Positions 1,820 to 57,357 of a stretch of 64,000 nucleotides of DNA are shown in pieces (position 1 is the first letter of the stretch; every line of letters starts with the position of its first letter). The notes under the pieces were generated by a model, which was not told the origin of the DNA, made no database searches, and saw only the letters and a program-made list of their open reading frames with translations. Location: NCBI RefSeq assembly GCF_036588685.1, contig NC_086373.1:81282001-81346000 (forward strand), given 5' to 3'. The position numbers and the translations under genes were made by a program. Origin of the DNA: Mytilus trossulus (taxonomy: Eukaryota).

Positions 1820-2009
1820 CCTTTAACATTATGCTACAACAAGTTCAGCATTTATTTGTGAAAACATTTTACCCTTTTACAGCTGTTTTAGGAAATGACT
1901 TTTTATAAGTATGTTGTTGTCAATTTTTATGAGAAATAAGTTTAATGCTTATATGATAAACAGAAAACATTGATCATCTACATGTACATGTCAATGTATA
2001 TTCAATGAC

Positions 2010-3260
2010 GAACATAAACATGGTTTCCGTAGTGGCCATTCCTGCGAAAGTCAACTTCTAATTACTATGCATGACATCATGAAATTATTTGATGCCAAGA
2101 AGCAAATTGATTTAATCATACTGGACTTTAGTAAGGCATTTGACACTGTGCCTCATCGAAAACTCCTACACAAATTAAAGAACTATGGAATTGATGGTAA
2201 TACAAATGCATGGATTAAATCATTCCTAATGCAACGCCACCAGCGAGTTATCGTCGAAGGGGAATTTTCTTCATCTTGTTCCGTCGACTCAGGGGTGCCC
2301 CAAGGAACTATCCTCAGTCCTCTTCTTTTTCTATGTCATATTAATGACTTGCCATTACGTGTAAAATCACAAGTACGTCTGTTTGCTGACGACTGCCTCC
2401 TATATAATACCATCGAGACACCACAGGACCAACTTTAAATACAGGAAGACCTAGATTCACTTGAAACTGGGCAAAGGACTGGGGTATGCGTTTTAATGCC
2501 AGTAAATGTATGTCATCTCAATTCACCGTAGCAGGTCCGCGCTCACATACAGTTACACACTAAGTAACCACACATTAGAGCAGGTCAATGAAAATCCATA
2601 CTTAGGTGTAATTATTAGTGACAATTTGAAATGGTCATCACACATAAACAAATTCTGCAACAAAGCCAATTCTACACTTGGGTTCATTAGACGGAACCTT
2701 AAACACTGCAACAAACATTTTAAGGAAACTGCCTACATCTCACTAGTTCTATCAGTCTTAGATTACTCAGGCACTGTATGGGACCCATACCTACAAAAAG
2801 ACATAAATCGCATAGAGAACATACAAAGAAGAGCAGCTAGATTTGTTTTCAAAGACTATAGACGTACTAGTAGTGTCACCTCCATGATGAAGGACCTTGG
2901 ATGGAAACCTCTTGATGAACGAAGACGAGAACAACGACTGGTACTACTTTATAAAATAGTTAACGACCTGGTAGCCATCCCCACTGAACATCATATCGAA
3001 TTTAATACTAGACCGTCCAGAACTTCTAACGTCAAACAAATAAAACTTTAAAAAATACTGACATTTATAAACATTCTTTTTTTTCCACAAACTATCATTG
3101 ATTGGAACTTACTACCAAATGCTACTGTGAACTGTAAAACTGTGGAAAGTTTTAAGGCAGTTATATCGCGCGACTAGATACCTCAGTGGTGCACACACAT
3201 TTCCTGGATAAGTTTTACTCAGTATTTTGAGAACATTTCCAGTACTCTACAGATACAGAT
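2010..3260 (+). mobile_element. 5'-truncated, decayed non-LTR retrotransposon (LINE) reverse transcriptase
   Basis: RT motifs HGFR..SCESQL, LDFSKAFDTVPH, SGVPQGTILSP, LFADDC, YLGV and IQRRAARFV in ORFs 2067-2438 and 2506-3051, broken by a stop and a frameshift. The 3' end is cagatacagat. Confidence 0.9.
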
Positions 3261-10916: not shown

Positions 10917-13900
10917 CTATGATCTTATCAATTTAAAACCATGTCCAGTATCAATTTGTTTTGGAGGAAGCCACTTCATTCTCTTCCTTTTTAAACACCT
11001 TGTTAGACATTGACAACAGAAACAAAGGCTCCCTGCACCACCAATATTCACAGCTTTTATCAAAGGTTTCATACATCTTGGGAAGCTGCTATCCCAATGA
11101 TTATATATCTCATCTACAGTTGGTAAATGGAATGTGAAATCTGTCCAACATTTAGAAACTTTATATACTGCTTTTACTGTCCTCTCTTTTGCTGACCAAC
11201 CAGGAAATATTTCTGCCTCAGCATTAAAATGTACATAATCTTGTGTAAAAGTGCCAACCTGAGCACAATTACCAAATTCTATGTCCTTGGGTTTCTGGAA
11301 TGTACATGTTTGTATTGCAACATATTCTCCCCAAACTCTTTGTACATCTTTAGCCCACATATAGGAATGTGTAGTATCAAGAATTAAGATTAATCTGGTC
11401 CCTAATCCAGAATTTTTAGATGCCCACCATTCTAGTAGAGTCTCCAGTTTCAAACCACTATTATCTGTAATAAATTTATATAAAGATATGTTTAACAAGA
11501 GGCTGTCACAACGACAGCAAACCGGATTTATTAACATTTATTTGTGTCCTGGCAATATCACAAGAACCATTACTAATGATTAGTGGAAGTGAAAATCGTC
11601 CATATCAAATTTGACCTCCATTTTGTCATAAGTATCAACATATTAAAATTTGAAAAGCTTAGATTGAATGGTTCATGCGTAAATGCATTATTGAACTTGT
11701 CTACTATTTTTTCATCAGTAACAACATATTAAAATTTAGGAAGCTTTGGTAAAACAGTTCATGCGTAAATGCACAGACACGACTGGAAACTCCATTTTTC
11801 AATCTTTCAAGAACCATAACTCCTGAACGGTAAAAGTCAAAATGGCCATTATTGAACTTGACCTTCATTTAATTGTCAGTAACAACATATTAAAATTTTA
11901 AAAGCTTTGGTTGAATGGTTCATGAGTTAATGCACGGACAACATTTGATTGCCGCCCGCCCGGCCGCCCACCAAGCATCCCCAAATCAATAACCGACATT
12001 TTTGTCACAAAAGTCTGGTTAAAACATAAGCAATTTCTATCTTACATTTTGCTCATCTTATTTCTATGGTATGATTGCAAAAAGCAATATTTTAATAAAG
12101 CTAATGGTATCACATCATCATTGATAAACAAACCTCAACATATTTTCATTATATACATGTATACACTTGATAATAATGATCTAGATGGAAATTTTAGATG
12201 ATTTCATTTCTAAAAGATTAACCCCACAAAATAATGTATTGATAAGTGATATCCTTACATGTATTGTCTCTTATTCTTACTACTTGTCACAGTAATGGTT
12301 TATTAATCGACATATTTCAAACTTACCAGATAAAGCCCATTCACCATTTTCATATACATCTCCACTGAAATACAAGATATAAGAGTCATACTTTGGTCCG
12401 TCTGACATTCTTCTGTCAAAGAAGGCCTTTAATTTAGACTCTAAATAGTCAATAGCTAGCCCACTTGTTGAGTAATCACAGCCGTAGTTGTCTATCATGT
12501 GATAGTTGAAGAAAGAACTGACTTTGTTCAAAGTGGTTGTAGCCCTTGTCCCCATATCTTGCATTGCCTCTTGTGACATAATATTTACTCTTGATCCCCT
12601 CCTGAAATAAATCAAAATGGTACAATAAAATGTAGGTACAATGTACATGTAGGCTTATTATTCCTCATATACTAGTATGTGAAAAGCTACAGTAATAAAA
12701 ATAAAAACAGAAACAAATAATGCATTCATTCAAACAGCAAATCTTTGATTAAAAATATCATTCTTTCATACATGTATATCTGTTTATTAAATAACAATTG
12801 TCTATTGTTGAATATAATGAAAGTTGACAGACCACTTATCAAAAAATCATAAGCAGCAGATACTCTGAACCATTCTATGACCCTCTCATATCAACTGTTG
12901 TTGCGCTATAGTGTTTTAAAATTACTAAACATGAGAAAAATATGATCTCAATTATTTAAATCCTTATAAAGTCATATCCTAATTAGTTAAGTCTTGATGG
13001 TAACGTATCTTCAATGTACATGTAGACAGTTGGAACTTAATTCTCTGCTTAAATTAGCAGACAGCAAATAAAAGTGCAATGCATCCATGTGACATTTCAA
13101 AGTTTATAGTTTTAATCTTAATGTATTCAGGTTGTATGGTTTGATTAGTGTTTAAATCCATTTGCAAATATTACATGCATATGATTATCAAAATGAGAAC
13201 ATGATAACATAGTATGAATATGAACTTGTTTGTACTAGACAGATATAAATGTACTGATCCAGATTTTTAACATGGTACAAATGTACATGTACATTGTAGT
13301 TACACAAAGCAGTAGGGTACAAAAACAAAAACTTCAAAAAGACACAGCAACTCTTATAATAGACATATCATAACTACAGAAATTATCTTACTTATGACCA
13401 GTTACAGGAGCAATAACTGCATAGCCTGTTGCTGTGCCACCAAGATTATCACCAAGGTACCAGAACAAACTCAGTGTCATACATTCTATTGGTACTACCA
13501 GTAATATCATTCCTAAACTGTATGGCTTATCCTTTCCAGTTTCCCATCCTAATCCTCCAAGTAGAACTGTAGTCAACAAAGTTATACAGATGAGTCTTTG
13601 TGAGATCAAACTGAAATGGCGTACTCCTTTTGAAGCCATTATTCTGCTCATATTCTTACGCTCATCAGTCAAGCTATTATATGTAAGATTGCATTCAGTG
13701 ATTTTGGACATAAGTTTCCAGCATGTTATAAAATATGTCAAATGAAAACATAGCCAGATACAGGCAAAGAAAACAGTTAAAGGTACAACAATGTACCACT
13801 CTTTGTGATTGGCTGACAGTTTACCAATCACAGCACCTGTTGCAATGTTAAAGGCAAATACAGCAAGAACGAATATGTATCTTAAATATTTTGAAAGATT

Positions 13901-14638
13901 AAAAAATCCTTGCCATCTTTGCAGTGTTGTTAAACCAGAAAAATATAAATCAATGAATGGTTCAAAGGAATGTCTTGCTGCGAAACAGGCTAGTCCATAA
14001 AAGTTTCCCGACAATTCAACCTGCTGAAAAATTACAAAAACAGAAAGACACACCATTGCTATAAAACTCAGTAATCCTAGGAATGATTTTAGTCTAATAG
14101 ATGCTAAATGTACATTAAATGCAAGCACCAAAAGTGAAAAAGATAAGGCATCTTTTCCTGTTACAAGTGTTGAGATCATTAATCCAATACTTTCTAAAAT
14201 TTGTACTGTTGTAAACATCTTTGCTTCGTGTTTTACTAAATGTAACATCCTCTCTAACAGATTCCAACACCATGTTAATACAGCACTTGTTACTAACAAA
14301 ACATTTGTCACTTCTTGCGACATTACAAACGCAATCTCTTTTTGATCTGCAAATATAATTATGCCGAGGATACATCCTAGCCATATATGCAATAATGTCT
14401 GTCCAATGAGTTCAAAATTAAAATAATATCGCAAAGCACAGGAGACTGCAAAAACGAAAAATCCCAGTATTGCAAATCCTAGAATAACATTGTTCTGTGT
14501 GAACTGCCATTGTGTGTACAGTCCCAACCCTAATGCTACAACTAATACTACACTAGGCAAATATCTCAGGTAAGTCAGATTAGCTTTTGCTTTGCGGTCA
14601 ACCATGTCCTCCCCTTTGGCAACTTCTGTCTCCATCAT
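10917..14638 (-). CDS. TMEM168: Transmembrane protein 168, 3 coding exons, 689 aa
   Basis: Exons 14638-13392, 12601-12327 and 11464-10917, GT-AG and phase-compatible, 2070 nt. Multi-TM N-half. Hallmark motifs RIMASKGVRHFSLIS, YGCDYSTSG, YDSYILYFSG, LLEWW, RLILILDT, WTDFTFHLPT and C-terminal DTGHGFKLIRS. A 5'UTR acceptor lies at 14684-14685. Confidence 0.95.
11494..12025 (+). mobile_element. HINE/pearl-like non-autonomous element in a TMEM168 intron
   Basis: aacaagaggctgtcac start, degenerate internal repeats (caacatattaaaattt..aagctt..ttcatg), gccc microsatellite, 3' hairpin aaccga..tggtt followed by an A-run. Confidence 0.55.
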
Positions 14639-15558
14639 GAAACTTTTTTTATATTTGTCTTGTTCTTGTGTTGGATTGAAAACCTACAAAAATAATCAGA
14701 AAATTCTTTATCATAGTAGGATAATGACTAGGTAACATGGAAACAGTCTTAGTCAAATTAGGATCTACCCATTTTCTTCTTTTTTCTTTAAAGTTTCTAG
14801 CGATACTTGAATATCTGGTGTCAAGTTCCCCCTGTCAACTTAAAAAAAATAAAAATAATGTACATTGTATGTACACTTGAAAATTTACATTAAGATAAAA
14901 CTATATACATCTACATTTGATAACAAAATAGTTAGGGATAGAAAATGGGTCGTGGATGGGAGCAGATTCTGAGGTCATATTCTTGTATCCCTGTACTGTA
15001 CTGAATGACACTATTTATTGTGGCAGATGATTCCAATTATAACTGTCATGACTGTCTTTTTTAAATTTAGATGTGTGCAGTGGGATCAATAGGTTATATG
15101 TAGGAACTGCAACAATTTTGTGTATAATTTTGTATATTACATGTAAGAAGAAGTCTGTATCGTAAATGCCTAATTTCAAGTGGGTACTAACTGTTTTAAA
15201 AGGTTTAAATTTGTTTATGACCATCATTTGGAAAGTTTGAAATTTATTTATATACAATATTCACTCTATTCTAAACAACGGATCATGCAAGGGCATACAG
15301 AACTTCCATATATATGATTATCATGTATATACATGTACATGTATCTTGAATAATACGACTATGCATTTATCTCATTGAAATGAAAGGTCAATACCCATGA
15401 TACCATCATGACCGACCATACTTCCCCATTGCCATAAATCATCTTTAGCCTTCAGGCAATGTTTGATTGACACCATTCCTTCAATAAAGGTAAACAATTG
15501 ATATGTGTGTGAAATGTATAATCATGATGTGTCTAATATTCTTGCGACTGTTAGGAAT

Positions 15559-20369: not shown

Positions 20370-23300
20370 ATGACAAATAATTCAAACCATTCTAGACCTA
20401 CGTTACCCGACAGGATAGATAGATTAACAGACAGAGGAGCACATGATAGGATAGATAGAGGATCAAGTGGTAGAACCGAAACGACAGATAGAACGTTAGT
20501 ACTTCCAGCATATACACTGAATGGAAGACATGCTAATTTTGCTAGTCAACGTGAACTTGTGGAAACAGAGGACGACGAATTCACAGTACCAATACTTCCT
20601 ATGGGATTAGCCGTTACATGTGGTGTTCTTAACTTTATTTTACCTGGATTCGGTAAATATGTTTTCATTTTTGGTTTTGAGTTAAAAATACAGTAGAAAT
20701 CTGATGTACAGTAGTCGTTCATACGTGTTTCTAGTTTTCATACTAGATTAGACCGTTGGTTTTCCCGTTTGAATGGTTTTACATTACAAATTTTCGGGGC
20801 CCTTTATAGCTTGCTATTCGATGTGAGCCAAAACTCCGTGTTGAAGGCCGTACCTTGCCCTATAATGGTTTACTTTTATAAATTGTTATTTGGATGGAGA
20901 GTTGGCATTCATACCATATCTTTCTATATCGAAGTACTCTATTTTATTATTTTGATATACACTCTTGTTTCCAAAACTACTTTATAAATCTGTTGTAATT
21001 AGAATCATATTCAAAACAGTGTGGTCCTGGGCATTGATTGACGACCTAAATTATCCCATTGACTGGGACAGATTAGGTGAACGTTTGTCTGTAACGACCA
21101 TTGCTCACTTCTTACTTATTATAGAATTTAAACTGTGGGGTCACCAAAGGTTCTTAACGCCTTTAATAACAAAATAATTCGAAAAATTATTCAGGAATAA
21201 CCTTTATGTTTTAATTTATATTATTGATATAAATCAACACATCGTAATATTCCGGATTCGTTTTTTTTATTGCTTTATTTAGGTGTTGAGAACCTTTGGT
21301 GACCCCACAGATTCAGTGTCTTTAACAAGTACATAGTGAGCAGTGATTGTTACCGACAAACGTTCACTATAATTTGTCCCAGTCAATGGGATAATTTAGG
21401 TCGTCAATCAATGGCCAGGACCACACTGTTTTGAATATGATTCTAACATGTCTACGTGTCATCTATCGGGGATTAAGTAGCGAATCTTCTTACATCCGTG
21501 TTTTATACATTTTACACAATAATATTGCCCAAATATTATCAATGCTGTGTACAAAAATCCGTCGAAAATCAAATGTAGGACTGTTGTTGAAATTTATAGG
21601 TATATGCTCTGCCTTTTCAGGGACTATAATAGCTGGACTATGTGCTCCTTGTTGTGCGAAGTCTGAACTAGGAATAAAAGACTACAGTTGTGTGTCTGCT
21701 TGTGTAATTATAGGAGTTGGATTTCTCCAACTTCTCCTGACAGCTTGCTTTCTGATTGGTTGGGTATGGAGTGCAATATGGGGAATAGCATTGATAGGAA
21801 CAGCATGTAAGTATAGAATAGTAATAATTTACTCCATAGATTGGCATACACATCGAAAGTACTAAGTATTTGAATACAAAGAGACAATTTGTAATATTTC
21901 TGTTAAATTCAATATGACATCTTCAACGTATTGTAATATGCTTTCAAATAAAAACAGCACATAGTTTTTATGCTTTAGTGCTAACTTAGTCAAATTGAGT
22001 CATCTTGTCTAAGTAATCATTTCCTTATAACCATTCCCGCGTAAGGAGAGTTTCACGTTAAAAAAAACTATCGCAACATCACTTTGAAGGACTTTGAAGT
22101 GTGCATAGCGGGCCTGTTGCATAGCAAAATAACTGCTCCTCTACAACATATTCAAGTGCTTATCAAAAGACACACAATTTGCACCACCTATGCATAAACG
22201 ACTTTTTTAATGTGATATCGTCATGAAAATGTTTGAAATATTTGTAACTGGGCGATACTAATGATAAACAGACAGGAATCACAACCTAATCAGACTTTAT
22301 TGAGGGATCGAGAAGTTGCTCCAACAGAAGGGTACTTTCACGAGTAGGCGAATGAAATATTATTGATTTAAAAAGAGCATTTCAGTTTGAAATACCTTAG
22401 TAAACATTAGTCCCCTTATAATGAAATATCGATACTTTATGGTTTGTATGGTTGCTTATCTGACTTATAAATTAAATACTTATTTTTCTCATATTTTTTG
22501 CTCTGACTTAAACTTTTTCATTCCCAGATAACAAGCATGTGCAAAATATGTAATCAATTCGAAAAGAAGAACAATCTCGATGTAGAGAATTGCGAACCTA
22601 GAACTTATATAAAAAAAAAACATTTCAACTGGTTTGAATTAATAATTTTAAAATATTGGACTGTCTTTTCCTTTTCTTGTTTAACCAATGTAAAATTAAT
22701 TTAAAAATTTATATTACACAATGCTTTATTTTGTCTTTTACAGCTGATTTTTCAAACTACAATCCGTTAGATCCAGAATCAACATACTGGCGCAATAGGC
22801 CATCATCTAACCGATCCAGGCGAAGTATAAGGCCTCGATCAAATTTCATCTATCCTATGAGGGCACCATCAAACGTAGATTATAATAGTCCTCCTCCTCC
22901 ATACCAAATGTTCGGAACACCTCCACCTCGCTACGCATCTAGACCTTCATCCGAAAGATACAGAAGTACTACAGCGTCACCATTAACAACAGATACAAGA
23001 CGGCTAAATGATGTGTCATCTGCAAGAACTGTAAGTTTGTAAAAAAAAAATAACGTAATTAGACCTCTTAAAATGTTTGAGTTTCCTCTACATTTCGAAC
23101 CATGTCTACATAATATGAAACGGCAAATAGAATTTCCATTTCTAAAATGATTGAAAATGACGATCAAAGGAGAACCTTATAGAAACAATTCCTATAATTT
23201 CAAAAGCTTTAAACACAATGCATTTCTATGAAAAGATTATGATGTTATATATAAAGATTAGAAGATGCGGTATAATTAACAATGAGACAACTCTCAACCA

Positions 23301-24356
23301 GAGACCAAACTACATAGAAATCAACTTTAGGTCATCAGAAATCCTTCAATAATGAGTAAAATCCATAAATGGTCTGAAACACAAGTCCACGAATATTTCG
23401 TACAGACAAAACATGTATATAATGGAGGTGAGATGTAACTGTAAACATTCTCATCCTCTCTGGTGGATAGTCGTCCCTTTGACAACCATAAATCGTCTTT
23501 TAATTATACGTATCTTATTCCAAATAAACGGACTTACCATTCCATAGGTGATCCTGACATTCAAATAAGAAAAACAACTGTTGACATCAAAAGATCGCAA
23601 GGATTTTTTTTCGTAGATTTTTTAAAGTTATGACAGCATATATCTTTCGCCAAACTGACTCAAATTTAGTTTTGATGCTTTGAACTCTCAAACTGACTTA
23701 TGTTTGTTTTATAGATGACAACGACACAAATAATGGAAGATTCGAGTGAAGTTATGTCTTGGGATTGTCCCCAGTGCAATAGAGTATATGAGGCTGATAT
23801 TCGTAAAGTATGTTTATAGAGATTTTTTTTCTTTAAACTATTTCCATAGTGTCGAAAATATTTATAGAACTGGGTCAAAGTCGTTTGAAATTATAGTTTT
23901 GTTATTCCTACAGTGGCTATACTTCATGTAGTATGGCCTGTATTAAATAACTTAGCACCACACCAACATCAAGAGTGTGTACCCACAAAAACGTCAAAAA
24001 CTTCATACAAAGAATGTAGCATTTAAAACTAAGATTGGCGAATGCTACATATACTCTAAATTGATTGGTTTGTTCCATTTTAAGTATTATAGAAAGTTAA
24101 AGTAAATGCTCTCATTATGCCCAATAGCCCTTCGTCACACTGTAGTAGGTTGTTTTGCTGTATATCAGAATAAATGGGCAAACGATTCAGTTATTCGTAT
24201 TTTTCTCGTTTTTAGCATCTTTGTCGGCGTTGTTCAAGAGATGTTTGTGGAAGGTGTTATACTAAGGTATTGAGAACTCGTGCTGAAGACAGAGTATCAG
24301 TGTGTGATAAATGTTTTACAGAAGTCTCACAGGATCCGAGGATGCAAAGAATCTGA
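20370..24356 (+). CDS. SPEC3/Stum-family membrane protein A with PPxY motifs and C-terminal FYVE-like zinc finger, 329 aa
   Basis: Exons 20370-20652, 21621-21806, 22744-23030, 23715-23807 and 24216-24356; all GT-AG, in phase, 990 nt. Stum motifs VPILPMGLAVTCGVLNFILPGFGTIIAG and GFLQLLLTACFLIGWVWSAIWG. Ends WDCPQCNRVYEADIRKHLCRRCSRDVCGRCYTKVLRTRAEDRVSVCDKCF. AATAAA at 24429. Confidence 0.82.
20999..21446. mobile_element. Long-TIR MITE in an intron of Stum-like A
   Basis: Inverted arms of about 160 bp: ttagaatcatattcaaaacagtgtggtcctgg...ccaggaccacactgttttgaatatgattctaa. Confidence 0.8.
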
Positions 24357-25563
24357 AAATAGAAAAAAAAACTAACATTTCAGTATTGCTGCTAGTCAGC
24401 GTAAATCAAAATGAAAAATTAATACTGTAATAAAGGCAATGAATTTAAGTATTTTATATAAATTGTCAAATCCGCTGGTTCGGATGTTTATGTGCAGTCT
24501 TTTATCAACTTTATTACCATATGAAATAAATACATACTTTTGTTTGAAAACATTCTTTATTTTGAAGGCCGTACATTGACCAAATTGTTATTTGGATGGA
24601 GAGTTGTCTCATTGGCACTCACACCGCATCTTCCTATATCTATTTATTGGTAGATCAAAATGTGGGAATCCTGTCCGCTCCATTGCTGATATATTCTCTT
24701 TAAGTAATCAAGATTGGTTTTGAAAAAATAAGTAAAATTTCCATCCTGAAGACAGTGATCTTGTTGTATACTGACCGACGTTAAAAGCCTTTCATAGATT
24801 TTGATATTGGATTTTTTTCTCTTTAATAATCATAAAATTTGTGACAAACTGAACACCTATTTATTGCCTGTTGTCAGCTTTCCTTTCTGTGGTGGTGAAG
24901 ATTTTTTTCCCCAGTTCAATCGATGTACACGCATTCACAGGGACTAATTAGATTGCAATACACAAAATTAAAGTGATTGCCATAAATAAAAGCCTACGAT
25001 TGGAGAATTTAGTCGCAGCTACTTCGACAGATACATGGTAATGGTAATTTATGGCACAGAACTATCACAGTAGGAAACATATCAACTATAAGAGGAAAAC
25101 CAAGGAAACAGGAATACCGTAGTGCCAAAAAAATGCCAGCACACATGGAAACGAACTAATAGATAACTGCCATATTCTTCGGTACAGGATATTTTAAGAA
25201 AAAAATGATGGGTTGAACCTGGTTTACTGACTAGCAAACCTCCCGCTTAATGACAATGTTTAAAATATCTTCAAAACACTACTTGACAGAAATACAACAC
25301 AAACACACACAGGAACATTCATATAACAGAGAACTGAACTATCATGGCTTATCTAGTAAGTTAGGTTCAATTGTAAAGACCGACATTTGATAACGACATT
25401 TTATTTTCAAATCACTTGCTGTTCATGCTGTATATTAGACAGAATTGTGGTTGTTATAAGGAATATTCTTCCGTGCATCCGCTTGGGAGAGTTGCCATTT
25501 TCATCTGGCACAAGCTCGATGACGAAAAATTAAGTCTTTAAACTGTATACTAGTATAGTAGAG

Positions 25564-27221: not shown

Positions 27222-30200
27222 ATGGGACTAGGAGAAGGTAGTGGTTGTAGGCCCAGGGCCAGGGCCAAAAAAGACAGAAAATACATCCCGGCAATGCCCA
27301 TGCCCCTGGCAGTAATATGTTGTATATTAAATTTTCTAGTTCCAGGTATAGGTGAGTAATACAATTATGTCATTCAGATTCATATTTCTAAGTATATGTG
27401 AGTGTCAACACGCATTGCACATTTATAGAATAATTGAACATATCTTGCATGTGGAAATTCATTCACTAGATATGATATAGTTTAAGGTATCATTGACATG
27501 TTACATATACATGTATATTATTATTAAAGACATTAAAAGTGACAACAGAGACCAAATGACGTATAGTATACTAAAAAGTAAAATCACTATTCTATACTTT
27601 ATAAATAGATGTAGTCATTTTTGTCAATCATATGAATAGTCCCAAAAAATAAACTATATTTATTTCAGAATATTTTTACCCATATCTATATTTTTTTTTT
27701 ATAGATTTAGTCCAAAAAAATATAGATATGAAATGGCCATTGAACTTGTACTAGTCAGAGAAATTTATCTGGTGCAGTCGTTCTAGGGGAGCTATATTGT
27801 AAAATATTGCACTGATATATTGTATTAAAATAAAAATAAAAAAATAGAACAAGGCATTATAATACTGTCTGATACCTATATTTTGTTTGTTTTACAAAAT
27901 ATGCTTTAATTATAGTAAAAGAATGCTGGTTTTCATATATATAATACATACATGTAACATTATAAAAAAAGCAGCTGAATATTCAATATTCAGACGCATT
28001 GCTTCTTTTATTACGTTTAGAACACAAACACATAGAACAAAAAAAAAATAACTGAAAATTAAATACTTGTTTCAATATGAAAACTTGTGTTTCTGTAGAC
28101 CTATCTTTGCCAATTTTCTGCCACATGTTTTTTTTAACTTTTCAAATCTTTTAAATGACATGAATGAGATAAAATTTGTTTGGTTATTTACTGGTTATTT
28201 ACTGGTCGAAAAATATTTCAGTTTTTATTATAAAATGTCTATAGATGTTAGACGAAATGTGAATTTGTATACAATATAAAAATTATTACTTTTAAGGTGG
28301 CTCGGGTCTTTTCGAAGTTTCTATCAGAAGTACCGTATTTTTGTTATTCACTCTTTACAGAAAGTGAATCAAATTGGTCGAAAAAACAGGTGGTCACAGA
28401 CCATTTAAGCTCACAATTTTACTTTTTAACAGGTATGTAAAAGGAACCATTTTTCAATGAAATGATAGGGAAAATAAAGGGGTTGACATATTTTTATCGG
28501 AATATCAAAAAAACGGTCTATGACACTTGGTACAAAACTGTAATATAAAAGCTGAAATATAGCTTCAAAGAATGAGCAAACAAAAAACATAGGTCACCGA
28601 TAAGGAAAAAAAATATTTTGCCTTTTAACCCAAATTTTGGCGGGAACATGATGAAAATGGGTTAAATGTTTATAAATAAATGTGAGCAGCCACTTCCTGT
28701 TTGCCGATAGTTTAAAATATTACAACACTTATCGTAGAAGAAAAATTCTCGTCATGTTCTTGTCTTCATTCATGTTCGGTATATGAGGGGCCCAATGTGT
28801 TATATCCTTTCTTCGTGATCGGCGCATTTTGGCTATTGTAATCCGTTTTTCTACAGATTTTTTTTTATATATTTTCGTGATCCGTGATAATGAACAAATA
28901 ATTTTCTGTGAATCGTGCTTGACAAAAAAATCAACTCGTGAATTGTGATGAGACCACACCCCAACACAAGGCCCCTCATATATGCAACCTCAATCCTCGC
29001 CTCAATCAATAACATGCAGTGACAGAGGTACAGGCTCGTTAGTTATCTTGTATGAATACAATGTATACTGATTCTTATTTATAATGCTCCACATGGTTAA
29101 TATGAATAATCCCAAAATGAATAAGAATACCTCGAGAAATTTTGAGAAAATAAAACACTTGTAAACACTAGAAATGGTTTATTTTCCTATTAAGAAACAT
29201 AGTAATATATATGTTGTGTACAATATGTAAGTTTGTACAAATTATAAGTTTGTACAAATTATAAGTTTGTACAAATTATAAGTTTGTACAAATTATAATT
29301 TGTACAAATTATAATTTGTACAGTGTCTTGTACAAGTGATAAGTATACACAATATAATTTTAGACAAAAAATAGAAGGCCCAGTCTTCACCCTCACAATC
29401 ATTACTGTCCCACACACCAATATGCCATATCGGTTTTGTTCATTTTTTCGGGTCCTACTAAAATGCGCCCGGGAGCGCCCGGGTGAAGAAATAGCGCCCG
29501 GGGAAAATAAAAAGCGCCCGGAGAAGAAAATATAGCGCCCGGGGAACAGAAAAAGCGCCCGGGGAAAATATTTGTATATTTTATTGGCATGAGACAACTT
29601 TGTTAAGTTATGGACATTGATTTTTTTTTTAATTTTAGACAAGTAATTTGCAAATTCAGATAATAGACACTTGTAATAAAGCATACATACAAGTATTGTT
29701 ATGCGTTTACTTTTCTACATTGGTTAGAGGTTCAGGGTGAGGGTTGAGATCTCACAAACATGTTTAACCCCGCCTCATTTTTGCGCCTGTCCCAAGTCAG
29801 GAGCATCTGGCCTTTGTTAGTCTTGTATTATTTTAATTTTAGTTTCTTATGTACAATTTGGAAATTAGTATGGCGTTCTTTATCACTAAACTAGTATATA
29901 TTTGTTTAGGAGCCAGCTGAATGACGCCTCCGGGTACGGGAATTTCTCGCTACATTGAAGACCTGTTGGTGACCTTCTGCTGTTGTTTTTTTATTTGGTC
30001 GGGTTGTTGTCTCTTTGACACATTCCCCATTTCCATTCTCAATTTTAAGTATGAAAAATTCAATAATAGACCTCAGGCACCGATTATTTTTTTTTTAACC
30101 GGCAAAATATACATTTTGATCGAGGACAATATCTTTCATGATTCTTCTATATACTCTTATTTATACTTATTTACTAAATTGTATACAATTTTGAAATCTA

Positions 30201-33200
30201 AAATGTAAAAGTACAACAACACCTTAGATGTAGCATCGTACGTGTCCCCATTTTATTAAGGACAAAACAAGCAATGATAAGTTATTTTTATTGAAAAAAA
30301 ATATTGTTATTACATATAATTATTTTCTTCTCCCGGGCGCTTTTTCTGTTCCCCGGGCGCTATATTTTCTTCTCCGGGCGCTTTTTCTTTTCCCCGGGCG
30401 CTTTTTCTTTTCCCCGGGCGCTTTTTCTTCACCCGGGCGCTCCCGGGCGCATTTTAGTAGGACCGATTTTTTCATAGTTAGAAAAGAGGGACGAAAGATA
30501 CCAGAGGGAAAATCGAAAATAAACTGACAACGTCATGGCTCAAAATGAAAAAGACAAACAGACAAACAATACTACACATGACACAACATAGAAAACTAAA
30601 GAATAAGCAACACGAACCGCACCAAAAACTAGGGGTGATCTCAGGTGCTCCGGAAGGATAAGCAGATCCTGCTCTACATGTGGCACCCGTCGTGTTGATT
30701 ATGTTATTACAAATCCGGTAAATAGTCAAATTCGGTAGGTCACATTCATGAAAGAGAAAGGGATTTGTGAAACGGTTATTCCATAACGGTCAACCAACTC
30801 ATGATGGCGTCCGTAAAATTAACGAAGGGATGATTTCAAGTTTACCAACTGAAACTCTTGGTTTAATAGCTTCCTTGTGAGCAGCAACCCTCTATCAAGA
30901 AAATCATGATAGGAAATGCAAGCACGGGAATATCGTATTAATTGGGAGAAATATACACCGTATACAGGTGCTGCTGGAATGTTGCTACTTGGAAATGGAA
31001 AGTTTACAATTGGAAAGCTGAAATCATCTCTTTTGTCGTAAAGTTTTGTTTTCAACTGACCCTCTTGTCAATTTCTAGATGTATGTCAAGATATGAGGCC
31101 GACTTAACTGTATCTGACTGTAGTATCCTTTATCTCTAGTTTGATAGGATAAATGCGTTCAACATAGTCACCAAATTTTGAATTATTTAGTGAAAGAACA
31201 TCATCTATATAGCAGAAAGTAGAGTTAAGGTCAAGTTACAGTAAATGGGCTATGTCACAGATTTTAGTAAAATTTTGCATACAACTCTGGCTCAATGAAC
31301 TCCAACTGAAAATCGAAAAAATAATGCATTTATCTCAATTATCATTTGAAATATCACTGATTGAATTCTTACAAAATGGGTGAACATTTGTATAGAAAGC
31401 ACATAAAATTGGCGAAAATCCTTCTAAAATTTGTCTTAAAATCGCCTAATTTCTAAATCTACTCCATAGATTTTTCTTAAAAAACTATATGCTGTTGATA
31501 CATAAATTTCCGTTATAATGATGCAAAATAAAGATAGGGTCACCGACTTCGTTTTTACAATATACATCAACAAAGTTGCGTTATTTGTGAAAAAATCCAA
31601 CAAAACGTCGAAATAATCGTAACTTTATGGCGTTGCAGGCCGTAAAACGTTGATTTTTGACATTTTTCACAACCAAAAAGGTAACAAATTGATAATTAGA
31701 CAAAAAACTAAGTCGGTGACCCTATGATTATTTCATATCATTAAAACAGAAATTTATGTGTCAACGAAATATAGTTTTTTAAGAAAAATCTATGGAGTAG
31801 AATTAGAGATTTGGCGATTTTAAGACAAATTTTAGATGGTTTTTCGCCGATTTTATGTGTTTTCTATACAAATATTCACCCATATTAAAAGAAATCAATC
31901 TGCAATTTTTCAGATGATAAAAGAGATAAATGTATTATGTGTTCGATTTTCAGTTGTAGTTCAACAAGCCAAGGTTGTATCCAAAATTTAAGCAAAATCT
32001 CGAACATAGCCCATTTACTGTTCCTTGACCTTAAAGGATATTGCTTACCTCTTATCTTTCTTCCTTAGAAGTTCCTGTATGAAGTCAGCCTCATAATAAT
32101 AAAGAAATAAGTCTGCAAGAAGAGGGGCACAATTTGTTCCCATTGGGATGCCGACAGTCTGTTGAAGTATCGCCTATGCACATGCAAGAACCATATATAT
32201 CACCCATAATGCCATTTAGCCTTGTCCCGTTGCATGTGCCTATCACATTTTAGTTCTAAATCTCGAATTCTTAATAACACAGTAGGAATTTATTCATATC
32301 TATACTCGGAACTATTTTGACCATGTTATACTGTATAAGACAAGTGTTTGAAGTTGACCTGTACATAATCCCACAGTGACATCTCTGTTAATTCGTTTAC
32401 ACGGTATCTATTAAAGGTTTTGAGGTTCCAAAAATAAACGTTTAGAATAATTAAGAAAGAAACTACATTTTTCTCCCTTGAAGTATAGTAAATATTTATA
32501 ATTTCAGGTACAATTCTAGCTGGTTTTTGTGTGTGTTGTTGTGCTAGAAATGAAGATATGACGTGTTGTGACAAGTTCTGTAGTTCCTTTCTAAGTGTTT
32601 TGTTTGGACTTTTACAAATTATACTCGCTCCAGTACTTTTTGTTGGATGGGTATGGAGTTGTTTTTGGGGAGTTTCTTTCATTGGAATGTCAAGTAAGTA
32701 TAAATGTATAAACTTCTTTGTTTCGTAATATCATAGAATAACCTTAATGATATTCATAGTGTGTAGTATTATTGATACAACTACTGTACTAACATAAACA
32801 CAATAGATACAAAGCACAGAAATAAGAGTACTGAAAACTAGTTCAAAATCCAATTTCAACTAATGAATAAACGATGTTCTCCAATATTAACGAATCAATC
32901 ATTGCACATCCAACGGATTTTATATATATGTATATATATAAGTACGTCGGAGTCAGTGATAACTCTACAACAGATGTATCCATCGGATCGCCATCAATGA
33001 TGGTGATACATGGCTGTGTACATAATGTATATATTACTCGTCTAAACATCAACCCAACAATGTTAGATCTGTAAATTTGCTTTCGCAAATTGTTGGTTCT
33101 TCCCTCGCCGGGATTCGAACCCATGCTACTGTGATATCGTGACACCAAATCGCCTGCACTGCAGCCGTCCCGCTAGACCACACGACCACCTGGGCTCTAA

Positions 33201-34854
33201 AAAAAGAGCTTTCGGTGGGCATGTGTTACCTTTCCACGTCAGTTTTAATCTAGCGGCGTACTACAGTACATGATATATAAGGCATGAAGATGTTATTGTT
33301 TACAGATCAGCTAAATTGTCTATAGTAAAGGATCCTACAAATTAATGTAAGATACAGTCACAGAAAATAATTATATTCATAAGTACGTCTGAGTCAGTGA
33401 CAACCCTACAACAGATGTATCCATCGGATCGCCATCAATGATGGTGATACATGGCTGTGTACATAATGTATATACAACTTGTCTAAACATCAACCCAACA
33501 ATGTTAGATCTGTAAATTTGCTTCCGCACTGTTGTAGGGTTGTCACTGACTCAGACGTACTTATGAATATAATTATTTTCTGTGACTGTATCTTACATTA
33601 ATTTGTAGGATCCTTTACTATAGATAATTTAGCTGATCTGTAAACAATAACATCTTCATGCCTTATATATCATGTACTGTAGTACGCCGCTAGATTAAAA
33701 CTGACGTGGAAAGGTAACACATGCCCACCGAAAGCTCTTTTTTTGAGAGCCCAGGTGGTCGTGTGGTCTAGCGGGACGGCTGCAGTGCAGGCGATTTGGT
33801 GTCACGATATCACAGTAGCATGGGTTCGAATCCCGGCGAGGGAAGAACCAAAAATTTGCGAAAGCAAATTTACAGATCTAACATTGTTGGGTTGATGTTT
33901 AGACGAGTTGTATATACATTATGTACACAGCCATGTATCACCATCATTGATGGCGATCCGATGGATACATCTGCTGAAGGGTTGTCACTGACTCAGACGT
34001 ACTTATGTATATATTATATATAGTGAGGGTAAAAAGACGTCATCAACGGCTTGTGCAATGCAAAAATATAAACAGGATGTAGGATCAAGAGTTCTTACAA
34101 TTAACACCAATTGTCGGTAATAAAGATGGCGATCGATCAATATTGAAGTACTGTATATACAAGTAGTCAATTAAAATTAACTAAATATGTTGCATGTAAT
34201 TTAAAACATGTTCTATATCTCATCCTAAATGTCCTAGACTAACAAAATAAAATCAAAACAGCCAATAGTGCTGACTGCAAAAATCTTATTTTACAGTTTG
34301 TAGTACTTAATAGGCACACTTTTAAAACTAAAATTGTTATTCATTACGCAAGTGGACCCTGGCGGTTGTAAACTTACCATATTAAGCGATGTAATTTAAA
34401 CTATGCAAGGTCAGATAAGACGTTATATATATATTTGTTTGTACATTTTGTAGAGGAATACTATCATGATAATAAACCATTTGATGATGCACAACCAAAT
34501 ACCGTAGTGACCAGTCAACCTGGTGCAAATCCCAATCTTGGTCAGTGGAGTTCACCGCCTGGAGGACCATACGGTGGACAGCCTGGTCCAAGTGAAGGAT
34601 ATTATCCACAAGGGGGTCAATATCCTGGACAGACTGGCCCAGGACCCGGATACTTTCCAGGAGGACATACAGGGTATCCACAAGGACAATCTAATCAATC
34701 ACCTATTGCTCCTTCTGCACCTCCGGCGGAAGACAACTCGGGATATCCACATCCAGGATATCATGAGCCACCACCAGGATATCATGAACCACCACCAGGG
34801 TACCATGAGTCACCACCTCCTTATGATGTCAATGATCCACATCCAAAGAAATAA
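27222..34854 (+). CDS. SPEC3/Stum-family membrane protein B with Pro/Gly/Tyr-rich tail (PSAP and 3 PPxY), 238 aa
   Basis: Exons 27222-27351 (MGLGEGSGCRPRARAKKDRKYIPAMPMPLAVICCILNFLVPGI), 32508-32693 (GTILAGFCVCCC...GLLQIILAPVLFVGWVWSCFWG) and 34454-34854. GT-AG, in phase. The middle exon is 186 nt, exactly as in paralogue A. Confidence 0.88.
29225..29322. repeat. 17-bp minisatellite
   Basis: taagtttgtacaaatta repeated about 5-6 times. Confidence 0.8.
29450..30465. mobile_element. TIR element with subterminal gcgcccggg repeats and 8-bp TSD; carries a nested dispersed repeat
   Basis: TIR ggtcctactaaaatgcgcccgggagcgcccgggtgaagaaa; TSD attttttc at 29442-29449 and 30466-30473. Confidence 0.8.
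29690..30047 (-). repeat. Abundant dispersed repeat (aattgagaatggaaatggggaatgtgtcaaagagacaacaacccgacc family)
   Basis: Close copy at 36945-37345 (+); fragments at about 26270-26620, 50296-50380, 51790-51850 and 59830. Confidence 0.8.
30482..32166 (-). mobile_element. Penelope-like retroelement fragment (RT C-half plus 3' tail), split by a MITE
   Basis: FQQTVGIPMGTNCAPLLADLFLYYYE (about 32165-32090), YIDDVLSL, SYLD, and KLYDKRDDFSFPIVNFPF..SNIP..YGVY.SQLIRY. The segment 30482-30700 is shared with 37348-37575. Confidence 0.85.
31229..32030. mobile_element. 802-bp near-palindromic MITE with TTAA TSD and GG..CC ends (Kolobok-like)
   Basis: ttaa|ggtcaagttacagtaaatgggctatg...catagcccatttactgttccttgacc|ttaa. 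Removing it rejoins the Penelope-like RT. Confidence 0.85.
32939..34005. mobile_element. tRNA-derived (SINE-like) repeat as tandem plus inverted copies, forming a ~1.07-kb palindrome
   Basis: Arms 32939-33414 and 33529-34005 are near-perfect reverse complements. The unit is about 441 bp. tRNA-like segment with A box tggtcgtgtgg and B box ggttcgaatcc at 33749-33844 (+), mirrored at about 33100-33196 (-). TA-rich flanks. Confidence 0.8.
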
Positions 34855-37347: not shown

Positions 37348-38270
37348 AAAGAGGGACGAAAAATACCAAAGGGACAGACAGTCAAACTCATAAATCTAAA
37401 ACAAACTGACAACGCCATGGCTAAAAATGAAAAAGACAAACAATATTACGCATGACACAACATCGAAAACTAAAGAATAAACAACACGAACCCCACCAAA
37501 ACCTAGGGGTGATCTCAGGTGCTCCGGAAGGGTAAGCAGATCCTGCTCCACATGTGACACCCGTCTTGTTGCATAAGATGTAACCAAAGAAAATAAACAA
37601 AATGACAATACATAAAAAACATCATCATACTAGCAGTTAACAGACATGCCAGCTCCAGACTTCAATTAAACTGATTGAAAGAATATGTCTTCATCATATA
37701 AATAGCAGGCACAATCCTTACCGTGAGGGGTTTAGTATCATACTATCATAACACATATGAGAAGAACACAACCCGTGTCATGCCAACAAATGTTTTTTTA
37801 AATATATGATTATTTTGTGCTTTATAAAGAATATTTCCATAAAATAATCGATGTAAAACACCTGGACGTATAAGAAGTCTGCATGTTGAGCTATATTTTC
37901 GAATGATGTCCTTATACCGATGGTAAAATTTTTAGTTAATGTTTTGACTAGTTTGTGATATCGAAAACCCTGGTGTAATAATTTATAAGTTATACGTAAA
38001 TTTCTCTCGTTAAAATCTAAAACAGTGTTACATACACGAGCGAATCGTACAAGTTGAGATATATAAACACCGTAAGATGGTGACAAGGGAACGTCACCTT
38101 CTAAAAATGGATAATTAACGACAGGAAATGAAAAATCATCTCTTTTATCATAAGTTTTAGTATAAAGCTTTCCGTTAATGATATAGATATCAAGATCGAG
38201 GAAAGTGCAGTGGTCATTGTTAGTATTAGCTTTATTTAAAGTAAGTTCAACAGGATACATTTACTAGTAT
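37348..38270 (-). mobile_element. Penelope-like retroelement fragment
   Basis: ORF 37778-38260 has YP.ELTL, FLDLDI, YDKRDDFSFPVVNYPFLEGDVP..PSYGVYISQLVRFARVC and a frameshifted end. Its 3' region resembles 49250-49330. Confidence 0.85.
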
Positions 38271-42474: not shown

Positions 42475-45400
42475 TTAAGAACGGCGGATTGGTGTCTTAC
42501 TTCTTGAACTATGTTGAGTTTCATTGCTTTTTGATTTTATTGCTTGAGTTTCATTGCTTTTTGATCTATGTCGAGTTTTATTGCTTCTTGATCTATGTTG
42601 AGTTTTATTGCTTCTTGATCTATGTTGAGTTTCATTGCTTCTTGAACGGTATCGATGCATTCGGCGTCTAGTGCGTTTCATGTGTGTCTGGCTTCTAGAC
42701 CGATATTTTGTTTCATTGCTTCTTGATCGGTATCGATGCGTTTGGCGTCTAGTGCGATGCACGTGTGTCTTGCTTCTGGACGGATGCTGTGTTTCACTGC
42801 TTCTTGGTCGATATCTGCGTGTACGATGAACGGGTGTGTTACTTCTTGATCGTTCTTTCCTTTTTCTATTGCTTCTTTTTTGTTTACAGTCATTTTCATT
42901 GTCTTGATGTTTGTGTTCACGGGTTTTCCTTTTTAAACCATCACGTTTCGCTTGCTGTTCGTCTGAAGGAGTAGTGTTTGATTCAGTTGTTTTAACCACA
43001 CATTGTTCAGAATAACAATCAGGTTCAAGGTCAATGGCAGATCTGTCAGCCCAAGGTTTCTCGTACTGGGTAATGATAATACTTTTATCTATTATCATAC
43101 TATTTTCAATACCAGAATCGTTCTTTAAAGACGTGAATGATGACCGCCTTGTTTCATTATCTTGATCTATAAAGGTATGAAATATAAATTAGACACAAGT
43201 TTTCCATCTCAGTAACGTCTTTTCCAAATTTTGTTGTTTAACAAAAAAAACCATTCTGACACATGTATGCTAAAGCTGTCCCAAAGCAGGAGCCCGTAAT
43301 TTATTGGTTGTGTTTTTTTGTTGTATGTTTTTGATTTTCGTTCATTATTTTGTACATATATCAGACCATTAGTTTTCTAGTTTGCATTGTTTTACATTTG
43401 TCATTAGGGACCTTTTATATCTGAATATATTGTATGGTCTTTGTTCATTGTTGAAGGCCGTACAGTGACCTTTAAATGTTAATTTTTGTGTTATTTGGTC
43501 TCTTGTGGAAAGTTGTCTCATTGTAAATTATACCCTATCTTTTTTTTATATAACAGGTAGTCACTTGATAACAGACCACTCGCTTGTGACAGTCACATGG
43601 AGAATGTGACGGAGCTAAACATATATATGTAACCGCTCAATTATCTCGTCACCAGGGGATAGAGGTGTAACGACACAACATAAAAACAAACATGATAAGG
43701 CTCGATTCATCGGATCGCTACTCAGCACTTAAAAATAACAAAAAGACGAAAGATACAAAGTATGAAACTGAGACCAGTATTCGCAGTAACTGAAATATAG
43801 TTTAAAGCCCAATAACAATAAATTATGTTTTCTAAGACTAAACCATCAATATGTGCACTACCATTGGATTAAGCTATTTTACCTTTATATGAAAATTATT
43901 TCATGTTGGTTTATGGGTGCCTTCCAATGCAAAATATTTCAATTTCAAACGCTTCCCATTGTCATTTCAATATTCACGTCTTTTTTCCTAGTTTGCGGCA
44001 TGACCGAATGAATGGTCATCGAAAATGTACTTGCCATTTTCAACACGATGGGCCGGTGCCACATGTGAAATAGGAGATCTGCATACCTTTCAGGAGCACT
44101 TTTAAGAATCTTTTAAGACCGCCTTCGATTTTTGTTGATTCCGTGTCGCTGTGTTTTTTATTTCTATTTAGTGATTCTAGAGTGGGGTGCCCATATTCGT
44201 CGGGGACACAATTTCGCCGTTTTATGATTTTGAGGTGTAAAAACATCAATGGATGGCTGAATTGGAAGACATATACCGGTTATTGATATAAAAAACAAAT
44301 ATGATTATTTTTTAAAACTGAGACAAAATTGCGGCACCTACTGAAAAGGACCGAAAAACGGACAACAATTTTCGGCCAATTTCCTAAAGAAAAACACGAA
44401 TTCAAAGAAGTATTTCTAAGTAATTCTTTGACTGAATGCCCTAAATTTCAGTGCTTTTAACACCTTTGAAATGTCTGCTATTCATCGATAATGAAATTGA
44501 TTTGATTAATGTTGTTTAAAGCTGCGTTTTTTTTGGTTTTAAAAAGATGTGTAATAAACAGCTGCGCAATGAGCGCATGATACGCCCGATGTCTTGTGTG
44601 GAAGTTTTATGCAATAATCATAAAAAGTTTCTGAAAATGTTTTAAGCAATAACCATATGTTGTTTTTGAGACACGGCGGGACATGTGAAACCCCCAACCC
44701 TGTTTTTTGTTTTTTTACATTATCATCAAAAAACAAAATATCACTAAAATAAAATTTTGAATCAAAACCAAAAAGTATACAGATCTTAAGATTAATATAA
44801 CAAAGAAGTGTGTAAAGTTTTAAGCAATTATCATAAATTATTTCTGAGATACGGCGCGACATGTAAAATAAAGGGCTGCGTTTTGGCGCATGATACGCCT
44901 GTTGCTCTTTTAACTTGTCTTTTATGCTTTAAATGAATTTATATGATCAACTAGAAATAGTGTGAGCCCTGTCAAATACCCCCCCCCCCCCCCTCCCCAT
45001 ATAATAAATAAAAATGCACAAAAAAATTGGCACTATTAATGTCAATAGATATAAACAATTTATCAAAGTTGCATAAAATTTTGTGAAAGTGTTAGTTATG
45101 GAAATTTAAAATCTGAAATTTATAAAAATTGAAAGAGGGCTTACATCAATAGATATAAACAATTCACCAAAGTTTCATGGACATTGGTGGAAGCCTTTTT
45201 GAGTTATTGTCCGAAGTGTTAAAAATCCCCCTTTTTTTATGAATTAAGCCCCATAAATCCAAAACTTAAAATCTGAAATTTATAAAAATTGAAAGGGAGC
45301 TTACATCAATAGATATAAACAAGTCACCAAAGTTTCATGGACATTGGTGAAAGCCTTTTTGAGTTATTGTCCGAAGTGTTGAAAATCACCCCTTTTTTAT

Positions 45401-56800: not shown

Positions 56801-56960
56801 CTTTTGCCCACCATAATTTCTTTGATGATTTGAATCCAGGAGCACTTCTTGGGGACAAAGTATCAAGGCGAAAATCAACACCTCCTGACGACATAGAGCG
56901 AAAAAAGAAAATTCCATACTGAACAACTGCTGTATTCCTCTTTGCTATTCTAACAACCAT
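53817..56960 (-). CDS. Tandem DUF442/TIGR01244-like (sulfurtransferase / PTP-fold) domain protein
   Basis: Exons 56960 (or 56894)-55883, 55390-55280 and 53965-53817, GT-AG and in phase. Domain 1: LYVAGGL..GGFNGVISL..AAKIAGLQF..PILLYGSQ. Domain 2: WFTAGQI..ELEAHGFKSVINMR..LKYYHLPL..GPVLFHCAIGKRAAFIGVLAAA..WALKRINELGF. Confidence 0.8.
54040..54246. mobile_element. Tc1/mariner(pogo)-type MITE with TA TSD
   Basis: ta|ccgtatagaggattat...ataactcgctagatacgg|ta. Confidence 0.6.
54781..55109 (+). mobile_element. Short HINE/pearl-like element
   Basis: aacaagaatgtgtcc..atgcccc start, gacg microsatellite, 3' atgccc...ggggcataaaaaa. Confidence 0.7.
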
Positions 56961-57357
56961 TATGCTAGTGAATTGCGCACTTATAATATAGTCAATGATG
57001 ATAAATATATGACCTCCGTGACCTATTGCTTTCATAACAGAGATTTAAATTTGTATGGCATGCTGAGGCAGTCATAAAGTAAAATCAATAAAGGATTATG
57101 ATATGTAAACAACTTCGTCTGATATATCGAAGTGAGTTTTTCGGATAGATAAATTAAAGTGGTAAGTTATATGAATTATGAAATATTTGACTAGAGCCGT
57201 CATTATTCTTTTTTTTATTGTTTAAAAACATGTACCAATAAAGTTTTTGAAAGATCATATATTAATTTCATGTTTGTTCTTTATGTGCTTGATCAAAATT
57301 CATATACATTTCAATATCATTGATGTTTTATATGTTTGGAGATAAATTTATACGGGC

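Follow-up and report, generated by a model that had tools for sequence, protein, structure and literature searches.

The 64,000-nucleotide stretch analysed here (hereafter the window) corresponds to positions 81,282,001 to 81,346,000 of the forward strand of Mytilus trossulus contig NC_086373.1, and contains a gene, here designated Spec3+FYVE, whose product combines a Spec3 domain of the Stum/SPEC3 membrane protein family, a tail with two PPxY motifs and a C-terminal FYVE-like zinc finger. The gene lies on the forward strand between positions 20370 and 24356 of the window, and its five coding exons, separated by GT-AG introns in phases 1, 1, 0 and 0, specify an open frame of 329 amino acids. 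A first-pass annotation of the window, made from the nucleotide sequence alone, had placed these exons, the donor of the third and the in-frame continuation into the last two, and recomputation of the 329-residue frame confirmed all of these elements.

The gene model is supported by its correspondence with database proteins. A search with exon 5 returned a single protein, P0006 (343 amino acids, cluster of 10), encoded on a 1,394-nucleotide contig as a single continuous open reading frame (ORF) that spans all four exon junctions and shares 314 of the 329 residues of the model. The 10-mers across these junctions are identical at 9, 9, 10 and 10 of 10 positions, and two further proteins, P0007 and P0009, present an uninterrupted ORF across the same junctions. 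Because the P0006 ORF crosses all four of them, the finger exons must be regarded as spliced into the Spec3 gene, and since its contig is only 1,394 nucleotides long against a genomic span of 3,987 nucleotides, we infer that P0006 is best read as the spliced transcript of a close relative.

Exon 1 (20370-20652; 88/94 residues identical to P0006) carries the ATG, a polar low-complexity N-terminal tail, an acidic stretch and, from approximately position 20583 onward, the start of the Spec3 domain (Pfam profile positions 2-24, E 0.006), and ends at a phase 1 donor (TCG/gtaaat). Exon 2 (21621-21806; 62/62 identical) encodes the remainder of the domain, comprising by hydropathy the end of a first hydrophobic stretch, a CC loop and a second hydrophobic stretch, and on its own scores 49.9 bits against Pfam Spec3 (cut-off 27). 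Exon 3 (22744-23030; 91/96 identical) encodes an Arg/Ser-rich linker and a conserved block of the form IYPxRAxSN...PPPY...PPxY (22845-22934; hereafter the PY block), with PPPY at 22893-22904 and PPRY at 22923-22934. The first two Cys of the finger (from 23766), an acidic turret loop and the RK of the RKHLCR patch are encoded by exon 4 (23715-23807; phase 0-0; 31/31 identical; finger profile E 2e-6), and the remaining six Cys (to 24314), a C-terminal helix and the stop codon by exon 5 (24216-24356; 42/46 identical), which by itself matches Pfam FYVE (E 7e-5). This match, and the fact that the six-Cys pattern of the exon is found only once in the six-frame translation of the whole 64 kb, speak for more than chance. 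Two AATAAA hexamers at 24429 and 24525 (24429-24530) are weak candidates for polyadenylation signals, five further A(A/T)TAAA hexamers being present between 23000 and 25000.

The exon 3 donor (ACT/gtaagt) opens an intron segment (23031-23042) in which read-through meets an in-frame stop at 23040-23042, 9 nucleotides into intron 3, and would yield a 255-residue form without finger. A Mytilus californianus RefSeq protein, P0008 (LOC127731818, 258 amino acids), which is identical to exons 1-3 at 240 of 252 residues, derives from a model in which this donor is read through and the finger is missing. P0008 would be either a short isoform or the product of a truncated gene model; an A-run following the intronic stop could prime complementary DNA synthesis, and could thus have misled that model. 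Intron 1 also harbors an element of about 450 nucleotides (20999-21446) resembling a miniature inverted-repeat transposable element, with 77-nucleotide terminal inverted repeats (97%) and nested inverted arms.

The domain composition of the encoded protein was assessed with Pfam on P0006, in which both Spec3 (PF15795; 77.6 bits, cut-off 27; profile positions 2-84 of 85) and FYVE (PF01363; 31.6 bits, cut-off 27.8) lie above their cut-offs. Together with the gene model, these calls support the earlier proposal that a Spec3 domain, PPxY motifs and a FYVE-like finger reside in one protein. The Spec3 domain scored 73.9-85.0 bits in 11/11 relatives. It contains two hydrophobic stretches (approximately residues 71-105 and 116-155; hydropathy 1.5-2.4), which are uncharged except for a short loop, and none of the 10 finger-bearing proteins, that is, nine database proteins and the window protein, presents a hydrophobic N-terminus indicative of a signal peptide. 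Since the protein has a pair of hydrophobic stretches but lacks a signal peptide, both tails should lie on one side of the membrane, presumably facing the cytosol. A full-length AlphaFold model, used for this region only, shows two helices (predicted local distance difference test, pLDDT, 53-82 by block; overall pLDDT 47.3 and predicted template modelling score 0.22, with the finger misfolded), and the modelled helices may cross the membrane or form hairpins. The ESM Atlas search with the whole 329-residue protein returned no usable match, and neither PSAP/PTAP nor acidic dileucine motifs were found in the window protein.

Seven further Spec3 proteins (P0051, P0062, P0066, P0074, P0082, P0092 and P0102) are 1,145-1,573 amino acids long, with the domain near the C-terminus, and the family is therefore not confined to small proteins.

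The finger shows all the structural determinants of the FYVE class. As the first-pass annotation had indicated, its eight Cys (270, 273, 286, 289, 294, 297, 313 and 316) follow FYVE spacing (2-12-2-4-2-15-2), which is present in all 10 fingers, with long loops of 12 and 14-15 residues, and the Cys themselves are invariant in the 9/9 aligned database fingers. Pfam FYVE was above cut-off in 5/7 full-length proteins, falling below it in P0009 (24.0) and P0010 (23.3), and each of the nine isolated finger stretches matched it at E 0.05 or better (best E 1e-9). The closest solved relatives by finger profile were EEA1 (E 4.9e-11), RUFY1, Hrs and Vps27. A model of the isolated finger (pLDDT 86) comprises two small beta-hairpins and a C-terminal helix. 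Foldseek searches with this model placed FYVE domains in ranks 1-10, all at probability 1.00 with a best E of only 3.8e-3, and VIA-align returned FYVE domains in the top six rows (Z 6.6-7.5, values below 8 being modest), the best PHD match reaching 3.9. As modelled, the finger is thus a FYVE fold. The ESM Atlas search with the finger alone also pointed to FYVE clusters (0.84-0.87), which we take as a lead only.

Other identities were considered for the finger and rejected. Matches to DUF4379, RING, B-box, IBR and PHD were all weaker than those to FYVE. The Rab-effector variant FYVE_2 (PF02318), found in rabphilin, Slp and RIM, matched only 3/9 fingers (best E 0.014), versus 9/9 for FYVE, and gave Z scores of 3.9-5.3 versus 7.5.

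Recognition of phosphatidylinositol 3-phosphate (PI3P, or PtdIns3P) by FYVE domains has been ascribed to a signature of three motifs, WxxD, R(R/K)HHCR and RVC (PMC2837644, PMC8491906). None of them was found in any of the 10 fingers. WxxD, searched within 14 residues before Cys1, was missing from all, as previously noted for the window protein. The R(R/K)HHCR patch was complete in 0/10, the window finger keeping 5/6 positions (RKHLCR, with Leu for the second His), also as noted, and RVC, on which the first-pass annotation had been silent, is likewise absent (0/10), being replaced by SVC in the window and KVC in P0022. Seven of the 10 fingers have neither patch His, Phe being the commonest residue at the first position (6/10), and the second His is found in P0022 only. 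This second His and the Asp of WxxD have been implicated in selectivity for PI3P (PMC3017826). The turret loop, the hydrophobic membrane-insertion loop of canonical FYVE domains, here taken as the four positions before the patch, contains an acidic residue in 10/10 fingers and two in 8/10, with a large hydrophobic residue in 4/10; the same four positions are acidic in 0/4 of EEA1, RUFY1 and two Hrs proteins. The net charge of the finger ranges from -1 to +5 across the 10.

The window finger is identical to those of P0007 and P0009 at 36 and 39 of 47 residues, respectively, whereas exon 1 is identical at only 46 and 51 of 94. By sequence comparison, the finger is under selection and not decaying. 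Intron 4 splits the patch between K and H, a position at which some canonical FYVE genes also have an intron.

The distribution of this architecture was explored through several searches. The search with P0006 recovered 12 proteins among 2,879 candidates and a profile search 14 among 8,000, while an exhaustive profile search gave 990 matches at E 0.001, the best 150 of which were all Spec3-type. Of the 159 proteins retrieved, the 109 with more than 200 amino acids then entered a part-by-part profile screen, the 50 shorter ones being set aside. The PY block was detected in 17 of the 109 proteins at 31.8 bits or more, the remaining proteins scoring 10.2 or less, and the finger in 9 of these 17 (at least 41 bits), all other screened proteins scoring 3.4 or less. 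Finger carriers comprise the mussel-like P0006, P0007 and P0009, proteins from Pinctada imbricata, Mizuhopecten yessoensis, Pecten maximus and Argopecten irradians, and P0021 and P0022. The search in other molluscs proposed by the first-pass annotation hence located the architecture in Pinctada and three scallops, and in 9 of the 109 screened relatives overall. The 8/17 PY-block proteins without finger include the M. californianus model and proteins from Ruditapes, Mercenaria and Dreissena, in addition to four others. No eight-Cys finger was detected in the 92 other Spec3 matches longer than 200 amino acids.

Mytilus, Pinctada and Pecten belong to the Pteriomorphia, and Ruditapes and Dreissena to the Heteroconchia. 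Similar acidic tails end 6/7 of the non-mussel finger-less proteins, and the absence of the finger in these proteins therefore looks real. A tree of the Spec3 and PY regions (24 rows, with paralogues as outgroup) places the finger carriers on one side of a branch with support 28/77, and allows a single change. The architecture is conserved across three bivalve orders, and the simplest history would be one gain of the finger early in the Pteriomorphia; an older gain followed by loss in clams may also account for the pattern. Both finger introns are in phase 0, making the capture of genomic exons easy to picture. An independent fusion of the two domains may also exist in a distant phylum, our scope here being the best 150 of the 990 matches.

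No feature of the tail is better conserved than the PY block, which lends support to the term adaptor used in the first-pass annotation. All 17 orthologues contain PPxY, against a shuffled mean of 1.14 (1.1 when rounded) and a maximum of 5 over 1,000 shuffles, and all 10 finger-bearing proteins contain two such motifs. Among the 92 other Spec3 proteins, PPxY was found in 20 (shuffled mean 4.13, maximum 12), and the control patterns PPxF, YxPP, PPxL and PPxA in 3, 6, 8 and 14, respectively. The fixed position of PPxY within the subfamily is a stronger sign than this enrichment. In 7/10 finger-bearing proteins, the Tyr of the first PPxY also begins a YxxF motif. PY motifs and WW domains are a textbook binding pair. 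The PY motifs of NDFIP1/2 bind the WW domains of NEDD4-1 and anchor this ligase to membranes (PMC13696927).

Several known systems share part of these features. The Stum/SPEC3 family (PF15795) shares the full Spec3 domain, and the intron positions are the same as in a neighbouring paralogue of the window, but the mussel protein adds the conserved PY block and a C-terminal finger of FYVE fold. Canonical FYVE domains (EEA1, Hrs/Vps27, RUFY1) have the same eight-Cys spacing and fold and provide the best sequence matches, whereas the mussel finger lacks the PI3P motifs, has an acidic turret loop and forms part of an integral membrane protein. Protrudin (ZFYVE27) likewise combines hydrophobic membrane regions with a C-terminal FYVE domain without the three motifs (PMC3247280), and its fold superimposes on that of the mussel finger with Z 7.5 (root-mean-square deviation 3.3 over 61 residues). 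It differs in its membrane domain, and its sequence match is weak (E 0.01, 19th of 38), which makes it an analogue and not a demonstrated donor of the finger. NDFIP1/2 are likewise small membrane proteins with tandem cytosolic PPxY motifs (PMC13696927). They differ in that no homology to them was seen among the Pfam matches of the mussel protein and its relatives, in that WW binding by the mussel protein would be by analogy, and in the zinc module. LITAF, PMEPA1 and LAPTM are further NEDD4-family adaptors. The Dictyostelium protein AdcA, which couples an arrestin module to FYVE, is also described as a trafficking adaptor that gained its finger by fusion, but it is a soluble protein localised through a PI3P-binding finger (PMC3001460), whereas the mussel finger has lost the PI3P motifs.

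The interpretation that we favour, tentatively and with slightly less than even confidence, is that the Spec3+FYVE protein acts as a membrane-anchored adaptor for NEDD4-type ligases, with the finger as a protein-binding module. A bivalve Stum/Spec3 paralogue would have acquired, at its 3' end, a FYVE finger encoded by two exons, yielding a protein anchored in the membrane by two long hydrophobic helices with both tails in the cytosol. Through its tandem PPxY motifs it would engage WW domains in a HECT ligase of the NEDD4 family and draw this ligase to the membrane, as NDFIP1/2 do. The finger, retaining its two-zinc scaffold, would no longer read PI3P specifically and would bind a protein, whether cargo or partner, with at most a weak affinity for acidic lipids. 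Such a protein could ultimately serve to sort the membrane proteins around it, or itself, in a ubiquitin-dependent manner.

A number of observations weigh against this adaptor model. PPxY also binds the WW domains of proteins that are not ligases, and its enrichment is overstated because shuffling splits proline runs and because the 17 orthologues are relatives and not independent cases. The P0008 model reads through the exon 3 donor and lacks the finger altogether. The branch implying a single origin of the finger has a support of only 28/77, and a tree of the Spec3 domain alone (35 rows of at least 74 bits, of 112) groups the finger-bearing P0022 with clams (95/97) and requires three changes, one of them being the annotation-truncated P0008. 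Mussel-type fingers are basic (net +4, 12 K/R), and position 2 of the patch is K/R in 10/10 fingers. Furthermore, protrudin was reported to bind PtdIns3P liposomes in vitro despite the absence of all three motifs (PMC3247280).

These last points bear directly on the possibility, already raised in the first-pass annotation, that the finger still reads a phosphoinositide, be it PI3P or another, as in protrudin, and steers the protein to endosomes or contact sites. The folds nearest to that of the finger are those of canonical FYVE domains and of protrudin (Z 7.5 with both RUFY1 and protrudin), basic residues of the patch are kept at position 2 (K/R, 10/10), position 6 (Arg, 8/10) and position 7 (Arg, 9/10), the protrudin precedent illustrates PtdIns3P binding without the motifs (PMC3247280), and weak binding could suffice given that a membrane anchor raises local concentration. 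Set against this, 0/10 fingers keep WxxD, R(R/K)HHCR or RVC and no conserved replacement is seen, the net charge extends from -1 to +5, and the turret loop is acidic in 10/10 and has a large hydrophobic residue in only 4/10. The altered lipid specificity suggested in the first-pass annotation is not supported: if a new specificity were being selected for, the fingers would be expected to have a pocket in common, and none is seen; the patch varies between lineages, neither His is conserved, and the insertion loop is acidic in 10/10. The protrudin precedent nonetheless leaves some room for it, and we consider a lipid-reading finger unlikely.

A less probable reading, which we consider doubtful, has the PY block recruiting a WW protein other than a ligase, or acting as a tyrosine sorting signal, with the protein itself being cargo or a scaffold and having a sensory or ciliary function like that of Stum. 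It draws on the requirement for Stum in mechanical sensing by fly proprioceptors, as related in PMC5834679 (citing Desai 2014), on a link between sea-urchin Spec3 and ciliogenesis given in the title of a reference in PMC4994401, and on the YxxF begun by the first PPxY Tyr in 7/10 finger-bearing proteins. This YxxF is missing, however, in the other 3/10 and in most finger-less orthologues, whereas PPxY is kept in all, and nothing in the analysis links the Spec3+FYVE paralogue to cilia or neurons.

It is more improbable that the finger is dispensable, or the appendage of a minor isoform, and that the working protein consists of Spec3 and the PY block, often produced via read-through of intron 3. 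The absence of the finger in 8/17 orthologues, including those of the heteroconchs Ruditapes, Mercenaria and Dreissena, the finger-less form given by the M. californianus model and by the in-frame stop 9 nucleotides into intron 3, and the wide drift of the finger surface between orders are all in agreement with this possibility. The eight Cys and their spacing are nevertheless kept across three orders, the finger is present in 3/3 mussel-like short-contig proteins, and the A-run after the intronic stop, by priming cDNA, could have generated the truncated model. Lastly, the possibility that exons 4 and 5 form part of a different gene, as the first-pass annotation had considered, or that they are a product of chance and the fusion an artefact, has a negligible probability. 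Only the M. californianus model would favour it, and it is ruled out by nine database proteins with both domains in one chain, three of them encoded on short contigs and four in genomes of named species.

The first-pass annotation had described the finger as hidden and the architecture as one it did not recognise. The former holds for the ORF track of the window but not for databases, in which both Pfam domains are already assigned to RefSeq proteins of scallops. The architecture is in fact already annotated, automated Pfam and UniRef labels revealing it in four bivalve species: three scallop proteins are labelled PF15795 and PF01363, and UniRef calls the Pinctada protein FYVE-type. A literature search found no paper on the Spec3+FYVE architecture, although supplements to bivalve genome and transcriptome studies may name the protein, and neither Spec3 nor transmembrane nor mollusc is among the words used in a survey of FYVE architectures from 2010 (PMC2837644). 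The Spec3+FYVE protein is thus apparently a lineage-restricted pairing of two known domains that is visible in automated labels and undescribed in papers. The results also entail an annotation correction, in that one RefSeq mussel model ends at the intron 3 read-through and misses the finger.

Phenotypes are known for Stum/Spec3 proteins, in fly proprioception and sea-urchin cilia, but to our knowledge no molecular mechanism has been put forward for them. A PPxY-conserved subfamily, one branch of which bears a finger of the trafficking type, suggests a part in membrane sorting that depends on ubiquitin. A broader proposal, which we regard as speculative and unlikely, is that a large part of the Stum/Spec3 family, given the PPxY found in 20 of the 92 more distant Spec3 proteins, consists of unrecognised NEDD4-type adaptors, and that the pteriomorph finger is a captured PI3P reader rebuilt, with its acidic loop, into a cargo-binding module. 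If true, this would provide a first biochemical handle on the action of the Stum family, and a clear example of how a FYVE finger can take on a new function.

The neighbouring paralogue mentioned above is a tandem Spec3 gene on the forward strand (27222-34854) encoding 238 amino acids, identified by tblastn and modelled with GT-AG introns as exons 27222-27351, 32508-32693 and 34454-34854. It has the same two phase 1 introns as the Spec3+FYVE gene and no finger, and its Spec3 columns match those of P0027 at 97% identity. Its Pro/Gly/Tyr-rich tail ends in a threefold seven-residue repeat carrying PPxY, for a total of three PPxY motifs. Intron 2 of this paralogue contains, at 32926-34013, nested direct and inverted copies (216 nucleotides at 100% and 275 nucleotides at 96%) of a repeat that includes a tRNA-like segment, in what looks like a recent inverted duplication of an element of the short interspersed type. 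Two fold-back elements lie at 29451-30464 and 31225-32034, one with 20-21-nucleotide subterminal repeats and one with 332-nucleotide arms (85%).

Elsewhere in the window, three frames on the reverse strand at 10917-14683 (431, 124 and 206 codons) encode a multi-pass membrane protein without Pfam match, which we presume to resemble TMEM168. Two exon copies on the reverse strand (42475-43188 and 49601-50287), 69% identical over 212 amino acids and with Arg/Ser/Thr-rich repeat ends, are probably the last exons of a tandemly duplicated gene. Reverse-transcriptase-like fragments at 1974-3051, 37778-38260 and 48058-49145 are presumably remnants of non-LTR (long terminal repeat) or Penelope-type retroelements. 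Finally, a 392-codon frame on the reverse strand at 55866-57044 is composed of two similar halves, both with a weak resemblance, at E 0.003-0.006 and thus far under the cut-off, to a phosphatase-like sulfur-transferase domain of bacteria (TIGR01244/Blh). It has no Pfam match and would be an odd product for an animal.

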